Below, piece by piece: positions 7,684 through 29,030 of a DNA stretch of 48,039 nt (position 1 is the stretch's first letter; every line of letters begins with the position of its first letter). A program made the position numbers and the translations under genes. The stretch is from Myxococcota bacterium (GTDB taxonomy: Bacteria; Myxococcota; Myxococcia; Myxococcales; Myxococcaceae): assembly GCA_046725335.1 (NCBI GenBank), contig JBKOYI010000109.1:1-48039 (forward strand), read 5' to 3'. The notes beneath the pieces were generated by a model. That model was not told the DNA's origin and made no database searches. It saw nothing but the letters and a program-made list of their open reading frames with translations.

Positions 7684-8205
7684 GTGCGCGTCGCCACCCG
7701 AGGCGCGCGCCGCTGGTGGATTCTCGGCCTGGTGCTGGGCTGCTCTCGCTCACCGCCGCCGGTTGCTCCGCCAGTCGAGGACGCGGGCCCCCCGGTGGGT
7801 CGGCCCGCCAGCGTGCACTTGCCGCTCCCTTCCGGGTGGACCGTCGTCACCGGCGCGGACGGGACGCTCCGGGTGGCCAGCGCTCCCGGTCGGGTGGTGC
7901 TGCGGGCCGAGCTGCGCCGGGAGGTGGGTCTGCCCACGGCGGAGACGATGCGCAGTGGGTTCACCGAGGGGCTGAAGCGACTCCGGGTCCGGCGTTCCTC
8001 GGCCACCGAGGAGCCGGGGTACGTGGCCCTGAACATGGTGGTGGGCGAACCGGCGGATGCCTCCCTCGACGAAGCGGTCTACCTCGCGGCGAGGCGGCTC
8101 GGCGACGAGACCTTGCTCTGCGCCTCGGTGCGTGGGGCGACAGCGGCGGAGCTGGAGATCGCCGAGCGGGCGAGCCGCGGGGCCGAGCGCCCCGATGGCG
8201 GGTGA
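7684..8205 (+). CDS. putative lipoprotein, unknown function
   Basis: GTG start 3 nt after the bactofilin stop. The N-terminus RGARRWWILGLVLGCS has a lipobox (LVLGC). No other motif recognised. Confidence 0.6.
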   Translation: MRVATRGARRWWILGLVLGCSRSPPPVAPPVEDAGPPVGRPASVHLPLPSGWTVVTGADGTLRVASAPGRVVLRAELRREVGLPTAETMRSGFTEGLKRLRVRRSSATEEPGYVALNMVVGEPADASLDEAVYLAARRLGDETLLCASVRGATAAELEIAERASRGAERPDGG

Positions 8206-19513: not shown

Positions 19514-19628
19514 GGCGGGCGGGCGCTTAGCATCCCCGGCGCACGCCTCGCAACGCGTCCGGTAGCCCGGGCGTCGATTGCGCAGTTGCTCCCACCGACT
19601 GGCAGCGTGCGACGCTCGCCGGCCTGGC

Positions 19629-21449
19629 ATGCACGAACCGGTGGTGGGCATCGACCTGGGGACGTCCACCAGCGCGGTGGCGACGCTGCAAGCCGGGCAG
19701 CCACGCATTCTGTATTCCCGGAACGGGCAGCCCCTCACCCCCTCCCTGGTGGGGTTTCGAGCCGACGGCGCCCGGGTGGTGGGAGAGGCAGCCCGGCAGC
19801 TGGCCGAGGAGCGGCCGGCCGACGTGGCCGCGGCTACCAAGCGCTTCATCGGCCGGCGCTGGACCCATGAGCTGGCGCAGTCCGCGCGGGGGCTGGTGCG
19901 CTATCCGCTCATCGAAGGGCCCAGCGGCGAAATTCGCATCAAGATCGCCGGCCGGGTCCTTCCGCTGACCCAGGTGTCGGCGCTGATCCTCGGCGAGCTG
20001 AAGCTCGATGCCGAGGCCCATTTCGGGCGGCCGGTCCACAAGTGCGTCATCACCGTGCCGGCCAACTTCGACGACATGCAGCGGGCCGCCACCCGTCAAG
20101 CCGCCCAGATTGCCGGCCTCCACGTCCTCCGCCTGGTCAACGAGCCCACCGCGGCGGCGGTCGCCTACGGCCTCACCGCCCAGTTCCAGGGCAAGGCGCT
20201 GGTCTTCGATCTCGGCGGCGGGACTTTCGACGTCTCCATCCTCGAGGTGGAGTCGGGGGTCTTCCAGGTTCGAGCCACCGGCGGCGATCCAGTGCTCGGT
20301 GGCGAGGACTTCGACGCCCGGATCGTCCAGTGGCTGCTCAGCCACATCCCGGAGACCCATCGAGAATCCGCCTTCCGGGACACCCTCTCGCTCCAGCGGC
20401 TGAAGGCCGCGGCTGAGCTGGCCAAGCGAGAACTGAGCCAGCATGACCAGGCCGAGATCGCCATCACCGGCCTTGGCGACCACGGACCGGGCGGAAGCGT
20501 GGTCAACCTCTCGGTGACCCTGTCCCGAACGGAGTTCGAGGCGCTGGTCGAGTCGCTGGTGGCCCGCTGCCTGGCGGTCACCGAACAGATGATGACCGAG
20601 GCTCGGGCCCGACCCTCCGACCTGGATGTCGTCTTGCTGGTGGGGGGGATGACCCGGGTCCCGATCGTTCGAAAACGGGTGGGAGACTTCTTCGGGAAGC
20701 TGCCGGTGGTGGGAGTGAACCCGGACGAGGTGGTGGCCCTTGGGGCGGCGGTGCACGCGGCGGAGATCGCGGCCCAGGAGGGGCAGACCCTGTTGATCGA
20801 CGTGGCCAGCCACTCGCTCGGGGTGGGTGTGCTCGGCGGTGGGGTCAGGCGGTTGGTGTTGAAAAACACGGCCATCCCGGTCGTCGCCCGGGAGGTCTTT
20901 CTGCCCTCCGGCTCCGGCCAGAGCCGAGCCCGCATCGTCATCTACCAGGGCGAATCCGCCGAGGCGGAGAAGAACGCGCGCCTCGGCGAGGTGGTGCTCA
21001 GCGACCTCAGGGTCAAGCACCGCGCCGACACTCCGCTGGAAGTGACCTTCGAGATGTCCAGCGAGGGGACGCTCAGCGTTCGAGCGATGGACCTCACCAC
21101 CGGACTGTCCGAGGCGGTGCGCATCACCCAGCGGACCGAGCTCTCCACCGAGGAGGTGAAGACGCTGCAGGCCGAGCAGGCCGCCTACCACGCCCAGACG
21201 ACGGATCCCGAGGCCAAGTCCATCGCTTCGTTCGAGCAGCTGCTGGAACGGGCGGAGCAGCTGCGGCGAGCCCTGGAGTCGCAGCGGCCTTCACTGGGAG
21301 ATGCGGCGGAGCGCGATTCGGCCACCCAGCTAGCCGAGAGCATGCGGAGCCTGGTTCACCTCGGGCGAACCGCGGCCCAGGCCGGGAACCGACGGCAGAT
21401 GGCCGAGGTGTCCGAGCGGCTGAGTGGGCTCCTGGCCGAAGCCAGCTGA
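19629..21449 (+). CDS. Hsp70-family chaperone (non-canonical DnaK paralog)
   Basis: VGIDLGTSTSAVA, ITVPANFDD, DLGGGTFDVSILE and VLLVGGMTRVP actin-fold ATPase motifs, plus a beta-sandwich substrate domain. Lacks the DnaK C-terminal EEVD-type tail. Confidence 0.9.
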   Translation: MHEPVVGIDLGTSTSAVATLQAGQPRILYSRNGQPLTPSLVGFRADGARVVGEAARQLAEERPADVAAATKRFIGRRWTHELAQSARGLVRYPLIEGPSGEIRIKIAGRVLPLTQVSALILGELKLDAEAHFGRPVHKCVITVPANFDDMQRAATRQAAQIAGLHVLRLVNEPTAAAVAYGLTAQFQGKALVFDLGGGTFDVSILEVESGVFQVRATGGDPVLGGEDFDARIVQWLLSHIPETHRESAFRDTLSLQRLKAAAELAKRELSQHDQAEIAITGLGDHGPGGSVVNLSVTLSRTEFEALVESLVARCLAVTEQMMTEARARPSDLDVVLLVGGMTRVPIVRKRVGDFFGKLPVVGVNPDEVVALGAAVHAAEIAAQEGQTLLIDVASHSLGVGVLGGGVRRLVLKNTAIPVVAREVFLPSGSGQSRARIVIYQGESAEAEKNARLGEVVLSDLRVKHRADTPLEVTFEMSSEGTLSVRAMDLTTGLSEAVRITQRTELSTEEVKTLQAEQAAYHAQTTDPEAKSIASFEQLLERAEQLRRALESQRPSLGDAAERDSATQLAESMRSLVHLGRTAAQAGNRRQMAEVSERLSGLLAEAS

Positions 21450-21501: not shown

Positions 21502-21942
21502 TCAGTGCAGCGTCCTCTTGAGGGTGCTCAACGTGCCGTGCGTTCGCTCGGCCTGGGGGAGCAGCTGGGCCTCCACCCAGGAGCGGGTGTCGCCGTCCAG
21601 GCTGTCGAGCTCACGGCGGTATTCCCGCAGCCCGTGGTCCTCGCCGGACTCCAGGGCATCCACGGCGGTCTTCTCCCCCAGAAGGTTCCCCCCGGTCTGG
21701 AGGAGCTTGGCCCAGGTACCCCAGGCACCGGAGTCCTGGGAGGGCGTTCCCCCGAGCGCGGTAATGCGCGAGCGCAGCAGGTCGATGCGCTGCTGGTGGT
21801 TCTGCTCGCATTCCTCCAGCTGGGCGCGGGCCTGCGGGGCGGAGATCTTCTCCAGCGCCTGGCGGTAGGTCTCGACCGCGGAGATCTCCACGCGGAGCAA
21901 GGAGTTCAGCTTGGCGATGACGTGCTCGTCGGGGGTGGCCAT
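21502..21942 (-). CDS. PA2169/DUF2383-like four-helix-bundle (ferritin-like) protein
   Basis: Helical repeat pattern LLRVEISAVETYRQALE...ALESGEDHGLREYRREL resembles the PA2169 family (TIGR02284-type). 146 aa. Confidence 0.7.
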   Translation of the reverse strand: MATPDEHVIAKLNSLLRVEISAVETYRQALEKISAPQARAQLEECEQNHQQRIDLLRSRITALGGTPSQDSGAWGTWAKLLQTGGNLLGEKTAVDALESGEDHGLREYRRELDSLDGDTRSWVEAQLLPQAERTHGTLSTLKRTLH

Positions 21943-22065: not shown

Positions 22066-23409
22066 TCAGGACTCTGCGTTCGGGTCGGAGGCGTCGAGCA
22101 ACTTGTAGAGCGTCTTGCGGTCCACCTCGAGGAGCCTGGCCGCCTCGGATTTGTTACCGCCCACCGTCTGCAGCACGTGCTGGGCGTAGCGCCGGTTCAG
22201 CTCGGCCAGAGTCGGCATGTCCCCTGCCAGCCCGGCCAGCTTCTTGGGGGCATCGCCGATGGGGGCAGGGAAGTCCGCCGGCCCGAGCACCCCGGTGACG
22301 TTCAGGGCCAGGGCCCGGGCCACCACGTTCTCCAGCTGCCGGACGTTTCCCGGCCAGTCGTAGGCGCGGAGGCGGGCCATCGCCTCCTCGGTCACCACCG
22401 GGCGAGCCCCCCCGCGGGCGTGCAGGGCTGCGAAGTGCTCGACCAGAGCCGGGATGTCCTCCCGGCGCTCGCGCAAGGGCGGCAGGTGGAGGTGGACGAC
22501 ATCGAGGCGGTACAGCAGGTCCTCCCGGAAGCGCCCTTCGCCCACCCGCGCCTTGAGATCCTTGTTGGTGGCCGCCACCACCCGGACGTCCACCCGGACC
22601 GGGGTGCTCTCGCCCACCCGGCGAATCTCCCCTTCCTGCAAGGCGCGGAGCAGCTGCGACTGAATCTTCGGACCGACGTCGCCGATCTCGTCGAGAAAGA
22701 GGGTTCCCCCGGTGGCTTCCTCGAACATTCCCCGTCGGAATCCGGAGGCCCCGGTGAACGCTCCCTTGGCGTGCCCGAACAGCTCGCTCTCCATGAGCGA
22801 CTCGGCGATGGCTCCGCAGTCCACCACCACGAACCGTCCGGCGCTCCGTGGCGAGCGCTGGTGCAGGCTCCGAGCCACCTGCTCCTTTCCGGTGCCGGTC
22901 TCACCGGTGATGAGGACCGGGACGTTGGTGGCGGCCGCCCGGGCCACCTGCTTGTACACCTCCAGCAGCGCCGCGCTCCGGCCCACCAGCTCGTGCTGCT
23001 TCACCCGGGCCCGGAGACTCTTGTTCTCTTCCACCAGGCGGCGCTGCTCCAGCGCTCGGCGCACCACCCGAACGATGGCGTCGACGTCGAAGGGCTTGGC
23101 CAGGTAGTCGAAGGCGCCCTGCTGGATGGTGTCGAGGGCGCCCTCGATGTTGCCGAAGGCGGTGAGGACGATGACGGGCGCATCCGGATGGTGTTCCTGG
23201 GTGGCCTTGAGTACCCGGAGCCCGTCGTCTGGGTCGGGCATGGCCATGTCGGTCAGCACCACGTCCACCCCGGGCGCTCCCCGCAGGGCCTCCTCCGCGG
23301 CCGGGGCCGAGGCTGCTTCGGAGACCGTTCCCAGCGGGGCCAGCAGACGCCGGAGGAGTCCCCGAGCGTGGGGATCGTCGTCGACGACGAGAATGTGCGT
23401 CGGCCTCAT
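22066..23409 (-). CDS. sigma54-dependent response regulator (NtrC family: REC-AAA+-HTH)
   Basis: REC domain (ILVVDDD...VVLTDMAMPD...AKP). AAA+ domain with Walker A GETGTGKE, ESELFGHAKGAFTGA, TLFLDEIGD and FREDLLYRL. C-terminal Fis-type HTH. Confidence 0.95.
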   Translation of the reverse strand: MRPTHILVVDDDPHARGLLRRLLAPLGTVSEAASAPAAEEALRGAPGVDVVLTDMAMPDPDDGLRVLKATQEHHPDAPVIVLTAFGNIEGALDTIQQGAFDYLAKPFDVDAIVRVVRRALEQRRLVEENKSLRARVKQHELVGRSAALLEVYKQVARAAATNVPVLITGETGTGKEQVARSLHQRSPRSAGRFVVVDCGAIAESLMESELFGHAKGAFTGASGFRRGMFEEATGGTLFLDEIGDVGPKIQSQLLRALQEGEIRRVGESTPVRVDVRVVAATNKDLKARVGEGRFREDLLYRLDVVHLHLPPLRERREDIPALVEHFAALHARGGARPVVTEEAMARLRAYDWPGNVRQLENVVARALALNVTGVLGPADFPAPIGDAPKKLAGLAGDMPTLAELNRRYAQHVLQTVGGNKSEAARLLEVDRKTLYKLLDASDPNAES

Positions 23410-24842
23410 TGGCTCTCGGCCAGCGCCTCGACCACGGCTGACGACGTTGCCGCGGCTGGCCGCGGCTGATCTGCGGCGCGGGGGAAGCGCACGGTGGCGG
23501 TGGTGCCCGCCCCGGGCGCGCTCTGGATCCGGAGCGTGCCTCCGTGTGCCTCCACCAATCGCTTGGTGGTGGCCAGTCCGAGTCCCTGGCCGGGAAGGCC
23601 GCGGGCCTCGGGGGCTCGAAAAAATGGCTGGAAGAGCCTCTTCAGCACCTCTTCCGACATGCCCGGTCCATTGTCGCTCACCTCGAGCACGACCTCTTCT
23701 CCCTCCAGCCCGGTGAAGACGGTCACCCGAGCCCCGGGCCGTCCAGCGGAGTACTTCACCGCGTTGGAGATGAGGTTCTGGGCGATGGATTGGACGAGCT
23801 GGGCCGGGATGTCCAGCCGCAGGTTGCGACGCAGCTTTCGCTCGATGACCACCCCATTCAGCGCCGCCACCTGGTCCTGCTCGAGGAGGATGGTGCTCAC
23901 CGCCGTCTCCACCTCACAGGAAGGGCCCTCGCTGCGCTTGCCGGCCCGGCAGAAGCGGAGCAGTGCCTCCACCAGCTCGGCCATTCGAGTGGCGCTGGCT
24001 TCGGCATCGGCCAGCATTTCCCGGATGTCCGGATCGGTGAGAGCCTCGGAGCGCCGGATGAGGGTGAGGTAGCCACGGAGCGGGCTCAAGGGGCTCACCA
24101 GATCGTGGGCCACCCGGCTGGCAAAGGCGTCCAGCTCGTGGTTTCGCCGATCCAGTTCGGCCATCTGCGCTTGGATGGTGTGCTCCTGGCGCCGGAGCAC
24201 GCGCACCATCGACGTTCCCACGACCATGGCCAGGACCACGCCCGACAGCGCCACCAGCGCGCCCACGAAGGTGGTCTTGGTCCGCAGGCCCTCCCGGCGC
24301 CGGAGCAGCGCTCGCGTCTCCTGGGCGTCCTTGTAGGCCAGCTCGGAGGCGACGGTGTGTAGCTGCTCGGTGATGGGCCGCAGCTCGGCTTCTAGGTGCT
24401 GCCGCGCCCGCTCGGCCTCGCGTCGGTTGCTGAAGCGCAAGGCCACCCGCGCGGACTGAGCCAGAGCGCGGGCGGTCTCGTCGAAGCGTTTCCAGATTTC
24501 TTTTTCGCCCTCCGGCAGCCCCTGGGTGTAGGCCAAACGGGCTTCCCTGGCGTCGGCCAGCGTCTCCTCCATCCTGGCGTCGACCACCTGGCGCGCATCG
24601 TCGTCGGTGGCGCGGATGTGATCGTCGACCAGGTTCTCCAACACTGCAGCGTCGACGCGGATCCGAGCGATGAGGGCTTCACGCTCCAGGGCGGCAGCGA
24701 ACAGATCGTCGATGCGGGCGTGGGTTCGCAGCTCGTTCCACAGAGTGAAGCCGGTCACGGCGGCCAGCAGGACGACGACGAAGAAGAAGGCGGCGCGGTA
24801 GCGGCGAAAAGACAGGGCAGCGTTCACAGGCGGAGGCGGCAT
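23406..24842 (-). CDS. membrane sensor histidine kinase (2 TM, HisKA, HATPase_c)
   Basis: TM helices AAFFFVVVLLAAVTGFTLW and FVGALVALSGVVLAMVVG. H-box FASRVAHDLVSPLSPLRGY, N-box NLISNAVKY, G1 DNGPGM, G2 GQGLGLA. The stop overlaps the ntrC-like start (ATGA at 23406-23409). Confidence 0.9.
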   Translation of the reverse strand: MPPPPVNAALSFRRYRAAFFFVVVLLAAVTGFTLWNELRTHARIDDLFAAALEREALIARIRVDAAVLENLVDDHIRATDDDARQVVDARMEETLADAREARLAYTQGLPEGEKEIWKRFDETARALAQSARVALRFSNRREAERARQHLEAELRPITEQLHTVASELAYKDAQETRALLRRREGLRTKTTFVGALVALSGVVLAMVVGTSMVRVLRRQEHTIQAQMAELDRRNHELDAFASRVAHDLVSPLSPLRGYLTLIRRSEALTDPDIREMLADAEASATRMAELVEALLRFCRAGKRSEGPSCEVETAVSTILLEQDQVAALNGVVIERKLRRNLRLDIPAQLVQSIAQNLISNAVKYSAGRPGARVTVFTGLEGEEVVLEVSDNGPGMSEEVLKRLFQPFFRAPEARGLPGQGLGLATTKRLVEAHGGTLRIQSAPGAGTTATVRFPRAADQPRPAAATSSAVVEALAESQ

Positions 24843-24993
24843 GCTGGCACAGGCCGATCTGACAGGGACCCGGACGTCCAGATTCACTGTAATCTCAAAA
24901 CTGTGGAGAATCTCCCCATTCGCTTCTGGACAGCTGCGGAGGGCGTCCCCAGCGGTTCCCCGCTTTGGAGCACACAGCCCTGGATCCACGCGG

Positions 24994-25009
24994 TGGCACG
25001 ACCCGTGCT
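24994..25009 (+). promoter_or_regulatory. sigma54 (-24/-12) promoter
   Basis: TGGCACG-ACCC-GTGCT with exact GG-N10-GC spacing, matching the consensus TGGCACG-N4-TTGCW at 11 of 12 defined positions. Lies 41 nt upstream of ATG 25050 and divergent from a sigma54 activator operon. Confidence 0.7.
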
Positions 25010-25049
25010 CGGAGGGCCCCCGCAGCACCAAACCCAAAGGAGCAACTCC

Positions 25050-25241
25050 ATGAAGAAGCTGATCGCCGCCCTGATTCTCGCCACCTCCTTCGCGGCCCTG
25101 GCCGAAGAGCCTGCCAAGCCGGCCACCGAGAAGAAGAGCGAGAAGAAGTCGGCCGACAAGAAGTCGTCGGAGAAGTCGCCGGAAAAGACGGACGCCACCA
25201 AGCCGGCCGCCGAGAAGACTCCGGCTCCGGAGAAGAAGTAA
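25050..25241 (+). CDS. small secreted Lys/Glu/Pro/Ala-rich low-complexity protein (63 aa)
   Basis: AAAGGAG SD 7 nt upstream. Sec signal peptide MKKLIAALILATSFAALA. The mature part is EEPAKPATEKKSEKKSADKKSSEKSPEK...APEKK. A paralog lies 143 nt downstream. Confidence 0.7.
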   Translation: MKKLIAALILATSFAALAEEPAKPATEKKSEKKSADKKSSEKSPEKTDATKPAAEKTPAPEKK

Positions 25242-25267
25242 CTCCCAGTTTCGGCTGTTGTCGTTTC

Positions 25268-25306
25268 GCCGGCGGGGTGGGTCCTTCGAGGGCTCACCCC
25301 GCTGGC
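25268..25306 (+). terminator. stem-loop after the first small ORF
   Basis: GCCGGCGGGGTG ... CACCCCGCTGGC forms a 12-bp stem with one G-U pair and a 15-nt loop. No U-tract. The 3' arm overlaps the -24 box of the next sigma54 promoter. Confidence 0.4.
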
Positions 25307-25318
25307 ACGTTCAGTGCT
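25303..25318 (+). promoter_or_regulatory. sigma54 (-24/-12) promoter, second copy
   Basis: TGGCACG-TTCA-GTGCT has the same defined positions as the copy at 24994. Lies 66 nt upstream of ATG 25384. Confidence 0.7.
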
Positions 25319-25383
25319 GAGCACTCTCATTGACGCAGCATTCCGCTGCCGTCCCCGTTTGTTTTTTCAGGAGCCCATCCCAC

Positions 25384-25569
25384 ATGAAGAAGCTGATCGC
25401 CGCGCTGGTTCTCGCCACCTCCTTCGCCGCCTTCGCCGACGACGCTGCCAAGTCGGACGCGCCCAAGGCCGAGAAGAAGCACAGCAAGAAGGCCAAGAAG
25501 GCCTCCAAGGACGCGACCACCGCCCCTGCTCCCGCGGCTGGTGATGCGGCCGCGGCCGACAAGAAGTAA
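25384..25569 (+). CDS. small secreted Lys/Ala-rich low-complexity protein (61 aa), paralog of 25050..25241
   Basis: AGGAG (25369-25373) upstream. Signal peptide MKKLIAALVLATSFAAFA. The mature part is DDAAKSDAPKAEKKHSKKAKKASKD...AADKK. Confidence 0.7.
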   Translation: MKKLIAALVLATSFAAFADDAAKSDAPKAEKKHSKKAKKASKDATTAPAPAAGDAAAADKK

Positions 25570-25615
25570 CTGACGCCCGCCGGGCCTGACAGTGGCCCCC
25601 GCGTCGAGCGTTCTT

Positions 25616-25921
25616 CTATGGCTTCGCCATTTCGTCCGGGGTGCGGTCGCGCGGCCGCGCGGTGAGGTGGTCCTCGACGTCCTCCGGCGTTGGCTCGTCG
25701 AGGGCTTCGGCCTCCGCGAACCGCTCCACGGTGGTGGGGGTCAGATCGGAGGGTTCGCTCTCGGGCTCGAGGTCGGGGGCGTGGCCGAGGTCGTCGTTCC
25801 CAGGGGCGAAACGGTCGCCCTCCACCGCCGAGGGCGGGAGGTCGGCATCGGGCATCAGCTGCCTTTCGCCCTCCAGCTCGACGTCGATGGGCAGCTCGTC
25901 CAAATCGGGGTCAATGGGCAT
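25616..25921 (-). CDS. hypothetical highly acidic, probably disordered protein (101 aa)
   Basis: ATG 25921 lies 35 nt downstream of the SanA-like gene stop. G/C-rich third positions. Rich in Asp/Glu/Pro (MPIDPDLDELPIDVELEGERQLMPDADLPP...). No motif recognised. Confidence 0.45.
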   Translation of the reverse strand: MPIDPDLDELPIDVELEGERQLMPDADLPPSAVEGDRFAPGNDDLGHAPDLEPESEPSDLTPTTVERFAEAEALDEPTPEDVEDHLTARPRDRTPDEMAKP

Positions 25922-25956: not shown

Positions 25957-26574
25957 TCAACCGCCCAGCGGGCTCGCCGCCGGTAGCTCGGGCGTCCGGT
26001 GCACGAGCACATCCACGACCGCCAGAGGCCGAGCCAGCAGCTCTCGCCAGACGTAGGGCGCCGTCCAGCGCGGTTGTCTCCCGGCGGCCACCCCCACCGC
26101 GTCCATCCCCGCAGCCCGGGCCAGGTAGAGCGCCCGAGGCAGGTGGAAACCCTGGGTGACCAGGATGGCCCGCTGGATGCCGAAGACGCTCCGCGCTCGC
26201 CAGCAGCTGTCGAAGGTGGAGGTCCCCTCCAGATCCGAGGAAATGGCTCCCTCGGGCACCCCTCCCTTGTTGAGGTAGCGGCGCATGGAACGGATCTCGT
26301 CGTGGTACGGGTCGGAGTTGCCGGTGAGAAGCAGTCGCCTGACCCGGCCCGCCCGCCACAGATCGGCCGCGACTTCCAGCCGCTCAGCCAGGACGTTCGA
26401 GGGCTCGCCCCCGGGGGCCAGCCCGGCCCCGAACACGATGCCCCAGGGCTCGGCCGGAGCGGACTGGAGCGAGAGGATGTCCCTCCGGAACCGCAATTCC
26501 ATGTACACCGTGGGCCCGAACAGGAGCAGCGCCGCCCCCGCAGCCAATCCCAGTCCAGCCGCAGTTGTCCTCAT
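25957..26574 (-). CDS. DUF218 / SanA-YdcF-ElyC family protein
   Basis: N-terminal TM helix followed by IVFGAGL...[28 protein letters not shown]...EIRSMRRYL...GTSTFDSC...[12 protein letters not shown], the pattern of SanA-like DUF218 proteins. Confidence 0.8.
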
Positions 26575-26630
26575 GCTCCGCAGGGCCAGTCCTCCAGCGA
26601 GCGGTTGATTTGCGCTCTGCCGGGCTGTAG

Positions 26631-28994
<2,364 letters not shown>

Positions 28995-29030
28995 AGGGAG
29001 CGTGTCCTGGGCGGATGGCGCGGTGGCCTC

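Follow-up and report, generated by a model that had tools for sequence, protein, structure and literature searches.

In a stretch of 48,039 nucleotides from a bacterium of the Myxococcaceae (Myxococcota bacterium, GenBank assembly GCA_046725335.1, contig JBKOYI010000109.1, positions 1 to 48,039; hereafter the window), we find a membrane histidine kinase and an NtrC-type response regulator that, judged by protein identity, are orthologues of Nla28S and Nla28 of Myxococcus xanthus, together with two tandem genes for small, apparently exported peptides that diverge from the regulator pair, each behind a consensus sigma54 promoter. Comparison across the family makes it likely that the window holds a local Nla28S/Nla28 system with these peptides as its immediate divergent sigma54 output. 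A reading made earlier from the letters alone (the sequence-only reading) had proposed a circuit that runs from a two-component system through sigma54 to small exported effectors, and this proposal is now supported by promoter elements that are invariant among relatives, by the recurrence of the design at about 40 loci, and by an upstream enhancer homologous to the sites of Nla28. The regulator system itself was already known, as was the logic of a two-component system acting with sigma54 on a divergently encoded periplasmic product. What is new is the small secreted-peptide family as the conserved and best-placed Nla28-type output, its tandem duplication, and a hairpin in the leader of its mRNA.

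Identity of the kinase and the activator

The response regulator gene (22066-23409, reverse strand; Pfam REC, Sigma54_activat, AAA_lid_14 and HTH_8) encodes a receiver domain with D54 (in VVLTDMAMP), an AAA+ domain with its GAFTGA loop, and a Fis-type helix-turn-helix (HTH), as read from the translation and the Pfam matches. The kinase gene precedes it on the same strand (23406-24842; Pfam 4HB_MCP_1, HisKA and HATPase_c), with its stop overlapping the activator start, and its product carries a periplasmic four-helix-bundle sensor of ~150 aa between two transmembrane segments, followed by HisKA and HATPase_c. Two kinase starts are available, an ATG at 24842 and a TTG at 25037 that is offered by the open reading frame (ORF) finder; we prefer the ATG because CAT is invariant at this position in 12 loci and because the orthologues are 476-478 aa long.

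Across its full 447 aa the activator is 78% identical to M. xanthus Nla28 (MXAN_1167), a protein of the same length, whereas the best NtrC-type matches outside the clade are at most 48% identical to it. The HTH is near-identical in the two proteins (GGNKSEAARLL[E/D]VDRKTLYKLL), and the kinase aligns with Nla28S (MXAN_1166; DK1622 ABF89976.1) at 55% identity, free of gaps. On the strength of these three comparisons the window pair is the Nla28S/Nla28 orthologue. Full-length kinase orthologues with 53-57% identity occur in cultured Myxococcus, Pyxidicoccus, Corallococcus, Archangium, Cystobacter, Hyalangium and Vitiosangium, and all cultured top matches of the kinase search show the same locus design. 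The M. xanthus locus (L178 in our set) was identified by the exact occurrence of the published nla28 half-sites and of the published nla28 -24/-12 string. The sequence-only reading had recognized no family for the peptides, neither of which matches Pfam or NCBIfam; the regulators do belong to a recognized system.

Other assignments fit poorly. Against the NCBIfam models the kinase scored 87 bits where the ZraS cut-off is 479, and the activator 365 where the ZraR cut-off is 760. Two further Myxococcus systems, both NtrC-like with a nearby or dedicated sigma54 target, were considered and set aside, and neither is orthologous to the window pair: for SasS/SasR with spiA (Omega4521), the genes of SasS (MXAN_1249) and SasR (MXAN_1245) are non-adjacent and spiA is MXAN_4276, while PxrK/PxrR (MXAN_1077/Nla19) with Pxr had been suggested by the position of the M. 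xanthus locus at ~1.36 Mb. The Pxr probe target is absent from the orthologous locus, which has no room for pxr because only 15 nt separate the activator stop from the next called gene in M. xanthus, and Rfam gave no match in the window or in six related loci.

The small genes and their products

Gene 1 (25050-25241, forward strand) encodes a pre-protein of 63 aa and gene 2 (25384-25569, forward strand) one of 61 aa. As the sequence-only reading had it, at these same coordinates, the two are paralogous ORFs divergent from the regulators, with near-identical Sec signals (MKKLIAAL[I/V]LATSFAA[L/F]A) and products that both end in KK. Each signal consists of MKK and a 15-residue hydrophobic stretch, LIAALILATSFAALA, and contains no Cys; A-L-A followed by EE closes it in gene 1, and A-F-A followed by DD in gene 2. 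Cleavage of the gene 1 product, placed by eye, is most likely after ALA18, leaving a mature part of ~45 aa rich in K, E, A, P and S, and the mature gene 2 product (~43 aa) opens with acidic residues (DD), passes through a basic cluster (EKKHSKKAKKASK) and closes with an Ala/Pro tail whose last residues are KK.

The mature parts contain 24-27% Lys plus Glu/Asp, Ala, Pro, Ser and Thr, with 0-1 hydrophobic residues; their pI is 9.3-9.6 and their net charge about +3 to +4. Given the family alignment, AlphaFold2 placed a helix at residues 2-12 only (mean predicted local distance difference test score, pLDDT, of 81 for the first block), with block means of 50 or less beyond residue 20, and the exported peptides are predicted to be disordered and lysine-rich. 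Neither ORF matched any Pfam or NCBIfam family at E <= 0.01, including ZraP/CpxP/Spy and Asr, and we found no His/Cys metal motif in the window peptides.

That both ORFs are genes is indicated by their codon usage and by their relatives. The G+C content at third codon positions (GC3) is 0.89 for gene 1 and 0.87 for gene 2, next to 0.84 for the kinase and 0.89 for the activator. Across 20 gene copies, 13 of the first 18 codons occur in 2-5 alternative forms, and the residue changes at only two of the 18 signal positions (I/V at 9 and L/F at 17). Because the copy-specific codon choices of gene 1 and gene 2 persist across genomes, the duplication must be older than the clade that carries the tandem pair and is not being homogenized. 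The homologue search that the sequence-only reading had suggested returned 28 relatives of 53-70 aa, two longer ones being read-through calls, all from metagenomes or metagenome-assembled genomes (MAGs) labelled Myxococcaceae, in addition to the wider module described below; orthologues of gene 2 are present in every tandem locus, and independent gene calls for the small ORFs exist in public data.

Some features of the family stand apart from these results. Most members have a C-terminal Lys (EKK, PAK, AETK, ADTK), and some in the tandem clade contain His-containing repeats such as HDAKTHDAAK. Myxococcus has a YkuD L,D-transpeptidase gene a few genes downstream. By analogy, and as speculation, the C-terminal Lys recalls the attachment of Braun lipoprotein to peptidoglycan.

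Sigma54 promoters P1 and P2

Upstream of gene 1 lies P1 (24994-25009, forward strand; TGGCACGACCCGTGCT), which reads TGGCACG-ACCC-GTGCT with GG at 24995-96, GC at 25007-08 and a predicted start near 25020. Upstream of gene 2 lies P2 (25303-25318, forward strand; TGGCACGTTCAGTGCT), which reads TGGCACG-TTCA-GTGCT and has its predicted start near 25329. The GG-N10-GC spacing is exact in both. The earlier claim that TGGCACG-N4-GTGCT with exact spacing stands before each ORF, and that no other TGGCAC checked in the window has a rightly spaced -12 GC, agrees with the motif count: exact TGGCAC-N6-TGC occurs twice on the two strands of the 48 kb window, at P1 and at P2. Shuffled windows gave an expectation of 0.56 exact matches, with at least two reached in 9/100 shuffles, and with one mismatch allowed the window had 12 matches against 16 expected. 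Since the count alone is only mildly unusual, the case for the promoters rests on position and conservation.

Non-coding conservation was assessed in an alignment of 12 tandem-clade loci, 11 of which have an intact spacer between gene 1 and gene 2. The P1 element GTGGCACG-N4-NTGC is invariant in all 12, including the locus whose spacer is disrupted (L081), while the flanking bases vary, and the P2 element CTGGCACGTTC[AG]GTGCT does not vary among the 11 loci whose spacer is intact, unlike the bases beside it. The good Shine-Dalgarno (SD) sequence that the sequence-only reading had noted before each ORF is likewise conserved across the aligned loci: that of gene 1 (AAGGAG, 25037-25042, forward strand) recurs as (A)AGGAG 7-9 nt ahead of the ATG in all loci, and that of gene 2 (AGGAG, 25369-25373, forward strand) as [AG]GGAG in all loci, with AGGAG in 11/12 and GGGAG in L093. 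From TGGCA to the ATG is 56 nt for gene 1, 81 nt for gene 2 and 73-83 nt in the wider family. A scan of 24700-25750 for sigma70-type promoters called none. In M. xanthus, rpoN is essential.

The upstream region and a predicted Nla28-type enhancer

Three conserved blocks lie upstream of P1, namely ACTGTAA, a palindrome GGGGAAAAACTCCCCA (in the window TGGAGAATCTCCCCA) and TGCGGAG-N4/5-TCCCCA. They include two predicted enhancer sites. Site A (24901-24918, forward strand) is an imperfect inverted repeat, CTGTGGAG-AAT-CTCCCCA, located at -93 from the T of the P1 TGGCAC and conserved in the clade as (G)GGGAAAAACTCCCCA; site B (24934-24952, forward strand), CTGCGGAG-GGCG-TCCCCAG, is located at -60 from the same T. 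The two are 33 bp apart, that is, three helical turns, and the half-site consensus CT(C/G)CG(C/G)AG is matched by CTGCGGAG with 0 mismatches and by CTGTGGAG with 1 mismatch. The M. xanthus counterparts are CTGGGGAG-CCTG-CCCCCA at -95 and CTGCGGAG-TTT-CTCCCCAC at -62; across the family, the majority of loci match the half-site near -95, -80, -62, -50 and -40.

For the nla28 locus of M. xanthus, the half-sites GTGGGGAG-N3-CTCCGCAG-N25-CTCCCCAG and the putative -24/-12 sequence TGGAGCG-N4-CTGCT have been published (PMC9765219, Table 1), and electrophoretic mobility shift assays showed both of half-sites 1 and 2 to be needed for in vitro binding of the Nla28 DNA-binding domain (PMC9765219). We find that the M. 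xanthus -62 site is identical with the published half-sites 2 and 1 and that the -95 site contains half-site 3. The published half-sites map to the divergent intergenic region. The published nla28 -24/-12 string maps inside the gene of a coiled-coil lipoprotein of ~150 aa (MXAN_1165), which separates the enhancer from nla28S in Myxococcus, Corallococcus and Archangium (6497-6952 in L096, 6543-7004 in L098 and 8488-8955 in L178) and which the window clade and several MAG lineages lack. The enhancer is 310-360 bp from this published nla28 promoter, which itself has no consensus C at position 4 (TGGAGCG vs TGGCACG). Judged by their spacing, the sites have the standard positions for an enhancer of the divergent consensus promoter.

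The sequence-only reading had expected an activator site upstream of P1 and had pointed to two dyads there. Of these, GGAGAATCTCC (24905-24915) is real and conserved, and it forms half of the conserved tandem enhancer homologous to the bound Nla28 sites; AGATT-N6-AATCT (24880-24895) is present in the window, and in relatives it is not conserved as a dyad, only its core ACTGTAA being invariant. By analogy with the ZraR sites that serve both zraP and zraSR, one enhancer may serve both directions. In the window clade, site A and the kinase ATG are just 58 bp apart, too close for a second sigma54 promoter to fit between them. Upstream of site A, the ACTGTAA block (24886-24892; unchanged in 12/12 aligned loci) reads TTACAGT when taken on the strand of the kinase, whose start lies ~45 nt further on, and may be the -10 element of a kinase operon promoter; in most relatives, not in the window, TTGCA follows it at sigma54 spacing with the GG missing.

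The second promoter, the leader hairpin and the duplication

Within the final codons of gene 1, 78 bp upstream of P2, lies an exact Nla28-type half-site, CTCCGGAG (25225-25232, forward strand). At -77 to -80 from P2, CTCC[CG]GAG occurs in 8/11 loci, where it is encoded as GCT-CCN-GAG. GCT is used in 8/9 of the loci with A-P-E at this place and makes up 21% of the Ala codons in the small genes, a suggestive pattern, among loci that are related, for CTCCGGAG as a candidate proximal enhancer half-site of P2.

The predicted mRNA of gene 2 begins with a stem-loop (25332-25353, forward strand), GACGCAGC-AUUCC-GCUGCCGUC, which starts from about +4. A stem-loop of 7-9 bp is found 28-35 nt after the T of TGGCA in most of 56 distinct long leaders, such that it begins within the first ten bases of the predicted transcript; it is present in M. 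xanthus (L178), in L096 and L098 and in ~50 others, and gene 1 of the tandem clade is without it. Its arms covary (GACGGCGC/GCGCCGUC in M. xanthus, CCGAUGC/GCGUCGG in Corallococcus and AACGCCGC/GCGGCGUU in Archangium), and the loop A(A)UCUC is exact in 23/56; the stem-loop has no Rfam match. That a hairpin with a conserved loop stands at the 5' terminus suggests that mRNA stability is controlled here or that a specific partner binds it. We also considered the loop as an anti-SD sequence, which was not convincing by eye. In the window only, a T-rich run, GTTTGTTTTTT (25354-25368), follows 5 nt after the hairpin and resembles an attenuator; it is absent from the other loci.

P1 has kept the ancestral enhancer with a short leader, and P2 the family-typical distance to the ATG and the leader. 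The tandem therefore looks like a duplication in which each copy keeps a different part of the ancestral control, and by leader length and hairpin gene 2 looks like the copy that has kept the ancestral mRNA leader.

The hairpin after gene 1

An 18-bp GC-rich stem-loop follows gene 1 (25268-25306, forward strand). The 92-nt stretch that contains it (25239-25330) folds at -49 kcal/mol (z = -5.9), and 17 of its pairs are conserved in 11 loci, mostly invariant or with wobble changes and with one compensatory pair. The apical loops of the relatives are mostly 4-nt and GNRA-like (GCGA, GGAA, GCAA, GUGA, GAGA, GAAA). The sequence-only reading was right that the stem-loop is real and that its 3' arm is shared with P2, where it overlaps the TGGC; it had gone on to call termination of gene 1 and initiation of gene 2 entangled. 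No T-run follows the hairpin, and a scan of 24700-25750 found 0 terminator-like sites. Because the hairpin is no canonical terminator, the entanglement is a matter of compact layout and not a shown mechanism, and the structure is most likely a 3'-end or stability element packed against P2.

Spread of the module in the Myxococcaceae

A degenerate DNA pattern for the signal peptide, searched in species-representative genomes, recovered 11 stretches, 10 of them with two copies 310-335 bp apart and the eleventh (L086) cut by a contig end. In the tandem clade, the promoters, SD sequences, signal peptides and hairpin are conserved in about 10 uncultured Myxococcaceae species. At one of the loci (L081, ENA contig_44594), both small genes and both regulator genes are broken by frameshifts, giving for example an 86-aa read-through product (P0015); these frameshifts are most likely assembly errors rather than marks of pseudogenes.

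The module extends well beyond this clade. About 40 of the ~48 loci scanned carry, in divergent orientation to the kinase operon, a sigma54 element and a small secreted ORF; they come from Myxococcus, Corallococcus, Pyxidicoccus, Citreicoccus, Archangium, Hyalangium and Vitiosangium as well as from MAGs. In this wider design the leader measures 73-83 nt, and the secreted ORF, 67-103 aa long and A/P/E/K-rich, usually has K as its last residue. The ORFs of Myxococcus and Archangium, at 80-89 aa, begin with a signal peptide, continue through a middle rich in Ala, Pro and Glu, and have a basic cluster close to the C-terminus; they are preceded by TGGCACG-N4-[CA]TGCT. Several lineages have two copies with a promoter each, such that the module as a whole exists in one- and two-copy forms.

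The M. xanthus counterpart

In M. xanthus the small gene is MXAN_RS05615 (243 nt; 7947-8189 on the reverse strand of L178, which is 1359329-1359571, reverse, in DK1622), with a product of 80 aa. Its consensus sigma54 promoter is TGGCACGCCGCCTGCT, and the published nla28 enhancer lies 62-95 bp upstream of it. The gene order in a published RNA-seq table is MXAN_RS05610 (MXAN_1164), MXAN_RS05615 (no old tag), MXAN_RS05620 (MXAN_1165), MXAN_RS05625 (MXAN_1166, nla28S) and MXAN_RS05630 (MXAN_1167, nla28) (eLife 2019); in the study of Nla28 targets, the primer table likewise gives nla28S as MXAN1166, and the target table gives MXAN_1164 as a GAF protein (PMC9765219).

The RNA-seq data have two replicates per time point, and for MXAN_RS05615 points are missing at 6-24 h, as is common there for short genes. 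Expressed as reads per kilobase per million mapped reads (RPKM), its values are 194 and 256 (0 h), 136 (24 h), 395 and 270 (48 h), 204 and 122 (72 h), and 452 and 187 (96 h) (eLife 2019). The small gene is therefore transcribed, at 122-452 RPKM and several-fold above nla28S, for which the same source gives 30-64 (eLife 2019). It was left out of the analysis in that study for its missing points (eLife 2019), and our full-text search for MXAN_RS05615 found no paper that names it. Because it has no old MXAN tag, it is probably absent from the target lists and from the arrays by which Nla28-dependent genes were defined. The published motif scan covered 500 bp upstream of annotated genes only, and the promoter that it lists for MXAN_1164, which is the annotated gene next downstream, is another and a weaker one (PMC9765219).

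Proposed circuit

From what is known of the family, the membrane kinase would sense an extracytoplasmic cue and phosphorylate the NtrC-type activator. The activator would bind the two imperfect inverted repeats CTGnGGAG-N3/4-(C)TCCCCA, as extrapolated from the tested M. xanthus sites, and would remodel sigma54-RNA polymerase at P1 and also at P2, there from a distance by looping or via the half-site in the end of gene 1. Each promoter would express one small gene, whose pre-protein would be exported through Sec and cut by signal peptidase I to release peptides of ~43-45 residues into the periplasm or the medium. The hairpin after gene 1 most likely would mark or stabilize the 3' end of the first mRNA, and the 5' stem-loop of the second would most likely control its stability or translation.

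Several points weigh against this circuit. The M. xanthus sites have been assigned to nla28S-nla28 autoregulation, through a promoter on the other strand (PMC9765219), and the literature consulted treats them as that autoregulatory enhancer only and makes no mention of the divergent small gene. The half-site consensus CTSCGSAG is found 10 times in the window against 11.6 expected, and because it is not enriched there, the enhancer call rests on position and homology. P2 has no tandem arrangement of the site A and site B kind and only the one half-site in gene 1. Both pre-proteins have the features of Sec and signal peptidase I substrates, with signal and cleavage site judged by inspection, and the function of the peptides is not inferable from their mature sequences because composition is conserved there and sequence is not. 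The circuit in this organism is well supported, and that support comes from comparison.

In M. xanthus, Nla28 acts in early starvation and spore formation and is linked to the production of A-signal, to which the Nla28S/Nla28 system has in turn been proposed to respond; binding of Nla28 to its sites and starvation-responsive regulation have been shown in that species (PMC9765219). Given this role in early starvation and spore formation, we tentatively favor, short of an even chance, a function of the peptides as disordered proteins that protect the envelope or periplasm or buffer charge there under starvation, in the manner of Asr or ZraP. Another function, for example in association with the matrix, extracellular DNA or peptidoglycan, is a possible and somewhat less likely choice. 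The hydrophilin-like or polyanion-binding character that the sequence-only reading had suggested for the peptides is conjectural.

Among the alternatives, the one that survives best, which we nonetheless judge unlikely, casts the peptides as feedback partners that contact the periplasmic four-helix bundle of the kinase and damp or tune its signaling. ZraP is an accessory and feedback partner of this kind for ZraS, and CpxP for CpxA. The small gene or genes are strictly linked to the kinase operon across the family, in a layout that matches zraP-zraSR, where ZraP represses ZraSR, and the tandem clade shows hardly any variation in the first 20 residues. However, the mature parts vary freely (43-70 residues) while the sensor is kept at ~55%, which would be unusual for a specific partner, and they have neither a predicted fold nor similarity to the CpxP/Spy/ZraP family.

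A second alternative concerns P2, which might not be an independent promoter at all if gene 2 were expressed mainly by read-through from P1 and the P2 motif conserved for some other reason. The lack of tandem sites at P2 fits this idea, as does a hairpin that, having no U-tract, may not terminate. We consider it quite unlikely all the same, for in 11 loci the 16-nt P2 element does not change although the bases next to it do, P2 keeps the 73-83 nt distance to the ATG and the family leader hairpin, and second copies in other clades have a TGGCA-N6-TGC of their own.

The peptides could also be an exported cue or substrate which, either sensed as such or after breakdown by extracellular proteases, feeds the proposed A-signal (cell-density) input of Nla28S/Nla28 in an autoinducing loop. 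A gene for a small exported peptide does stand beside its own two-component system, by which it is probably induced, the export leader is conserved while the mature part is variable, and the ties of Nla28 to both A-signal production and A-signal response point the same way. Conservation is compositional, however, and no processing or modification genes lie nearby, which fits a bulk physicochemical role better than a specific ligand; passage across the outer membrane is unsupported. We regard such a loop as improbable, and as more doubtful still the specific version in which the peptides are a self-induced secreted cue, or a protease substrate yielding A-signal amino acids, that is sensed by the four-helix bundle of the kinase. 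If true, the module would be for Gram-negative bacteria, on a sigma54 basis, what the peptide autoinducer cassettes are for Gram-positive ones, and would explain why Nla28 is tied both to the production of A-signal and to the response to it.

It is very improbable that the promoters are served by another sigma54 activator and that the adjacency is coincidental. M. xanthus has about 53 sigma54 activators, and in every species the control of the small gene by its neighbor is deduced from sequence comparison; against this, the enhancer is the sequence to which Nla28's DNA-binding domain binds in M. xanthus, and the linkage holds across genera despite rearranged surroundings (atp genes in the window clade, GAF and Ser/Thr kinase genes in Myxococcus). 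Finally, that the ORFs are untranslated and the promoters drive small non-coding RNAs is barely credible, for although short transcripts flanked by a conserved structured 5' leader and a 3' hairpin, and the M. xanthus precedent of the sigma54-driven Pxr next to the NtrC-like gene nla19, might suggest it, the in-frame GC3 (0.87-0.89), the almost entirely synonymous codon changes in the 20 signal peptides, the conserved SD and ATG, an ORF of signal peptide plus K-rich part that is kept across genera despite sequence turnover, and the missing Rfam match all speak against it.

Comparison with known systems

The closest relative of the arrangement preferred here, an Nla28-type pair with a divergent exported-peptide output, is the Nla28S/Nla28 locus of M. 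xanthus, which shares the orthologous kinase-then-activator operon with overlapping stop and start, the tandem enhancer, and the divergent sigma54 promoter with its small secreted ORF. The window differs in having two small genes (61-63 aa) where M. xanthus has one (80 aa), in the lack, throughout its clade, of an MXAN_1165-like lipoprotein gene, and in its place among ATP synthase genes.

ZraP-ZraSR of E. coli and Salmonella, which responds to envelope stress, has the same layout, with an operon of a kinase and an NtrC-type regulator divergent from a sigma54-dependent gene for a small periplasmic product and with one intergenic enhancer; ZraP is the periplasmic product of that system and represses ZraSR. 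It differs from the window peptides in being a folded, zinc-binding chaperone of ~140 aa in the CpxP/Spy family, whereas the window peptides have no fold prediction and no metal motif. The likeness is one of layout by analogy and not of membership.

Asr of E. coli resembles the peptides as a small, signal-bearing, Lys/Ala/Pro-rich, disordered periplasmic protein, is strongly induced by stress, and has been reported as a disordered chaperone that supports outer-membrane integrity. The His-rich repeats of some family members, as in HDAKTHDAAK, are a further point of likeness. Its induction runs via the two-component systems PhoBR and RstAB, and to our knowledge it is neither sigma54-dependent nor encoded next to its regulators. 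The window peptides are about half the size of Asr and show no detectable sequence homology to it (Pfam, E <= 0.01), so the likeness is in composition only.

Genomic neighborhood

Gene order does not vary within the tandem clade. It runs from atpH and an Hsp70-like gene, with a DUF2383 gene next in some loci, through the activator, the kinase and the two small genes to a DUF218 gene encoded on the opposite strand and then atpG and atpD. In the window the flanks of the module (19578-21449 and 21502-21942 on one side, 25957-26700 and 26700-29000 on the other) form this ATP synthase neighborhood: atpH and the Hsp70-like gene flank the module to the one side, DUF218, atpG and atpD to the other. 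The orthologous module of Myxococcus is sited elsewhere, and its neighbors are GAF and Ser/Thr kinase genes. Both the window and L081 have the DUF2383 gene after the activator; L082-L084 lack it.

A probable extra gene converges on gene 2 in the window (25616-25921, reverse strand). Its product of 101 aa is very acidic and rich in Asp, Glu and Pro, with no signal peptide and no Pfam match, and its GC3 is 0.88; the region is missing from related loci, where gene 2 directly adjoins the DUF218 gene.

Meaning for the Nla28 system

Nla28S/Nla28 is among the earliest regulators of the starvation and developmental response of M. xanthus, and the enhancer that defined the Nla28 binding site stands where it canonically would to serve a consensus sigma54 promoter of the opposite strand, ~60 and 95 bp upstream of it. 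The small gene behind that promoter is the feature most tightly linked to the kinase and activator pair across the family, and it is duplicated in some lineages. It thus makes a candidate, in a genetically tractable model organism, for the system's primary physiological output, or else for an element of feedback or signaling within it. The family would also add very short, lysine-rich, disordered exported proteins and a 5'-leader hairpin to the uncharacterized elements associated with the envelope.

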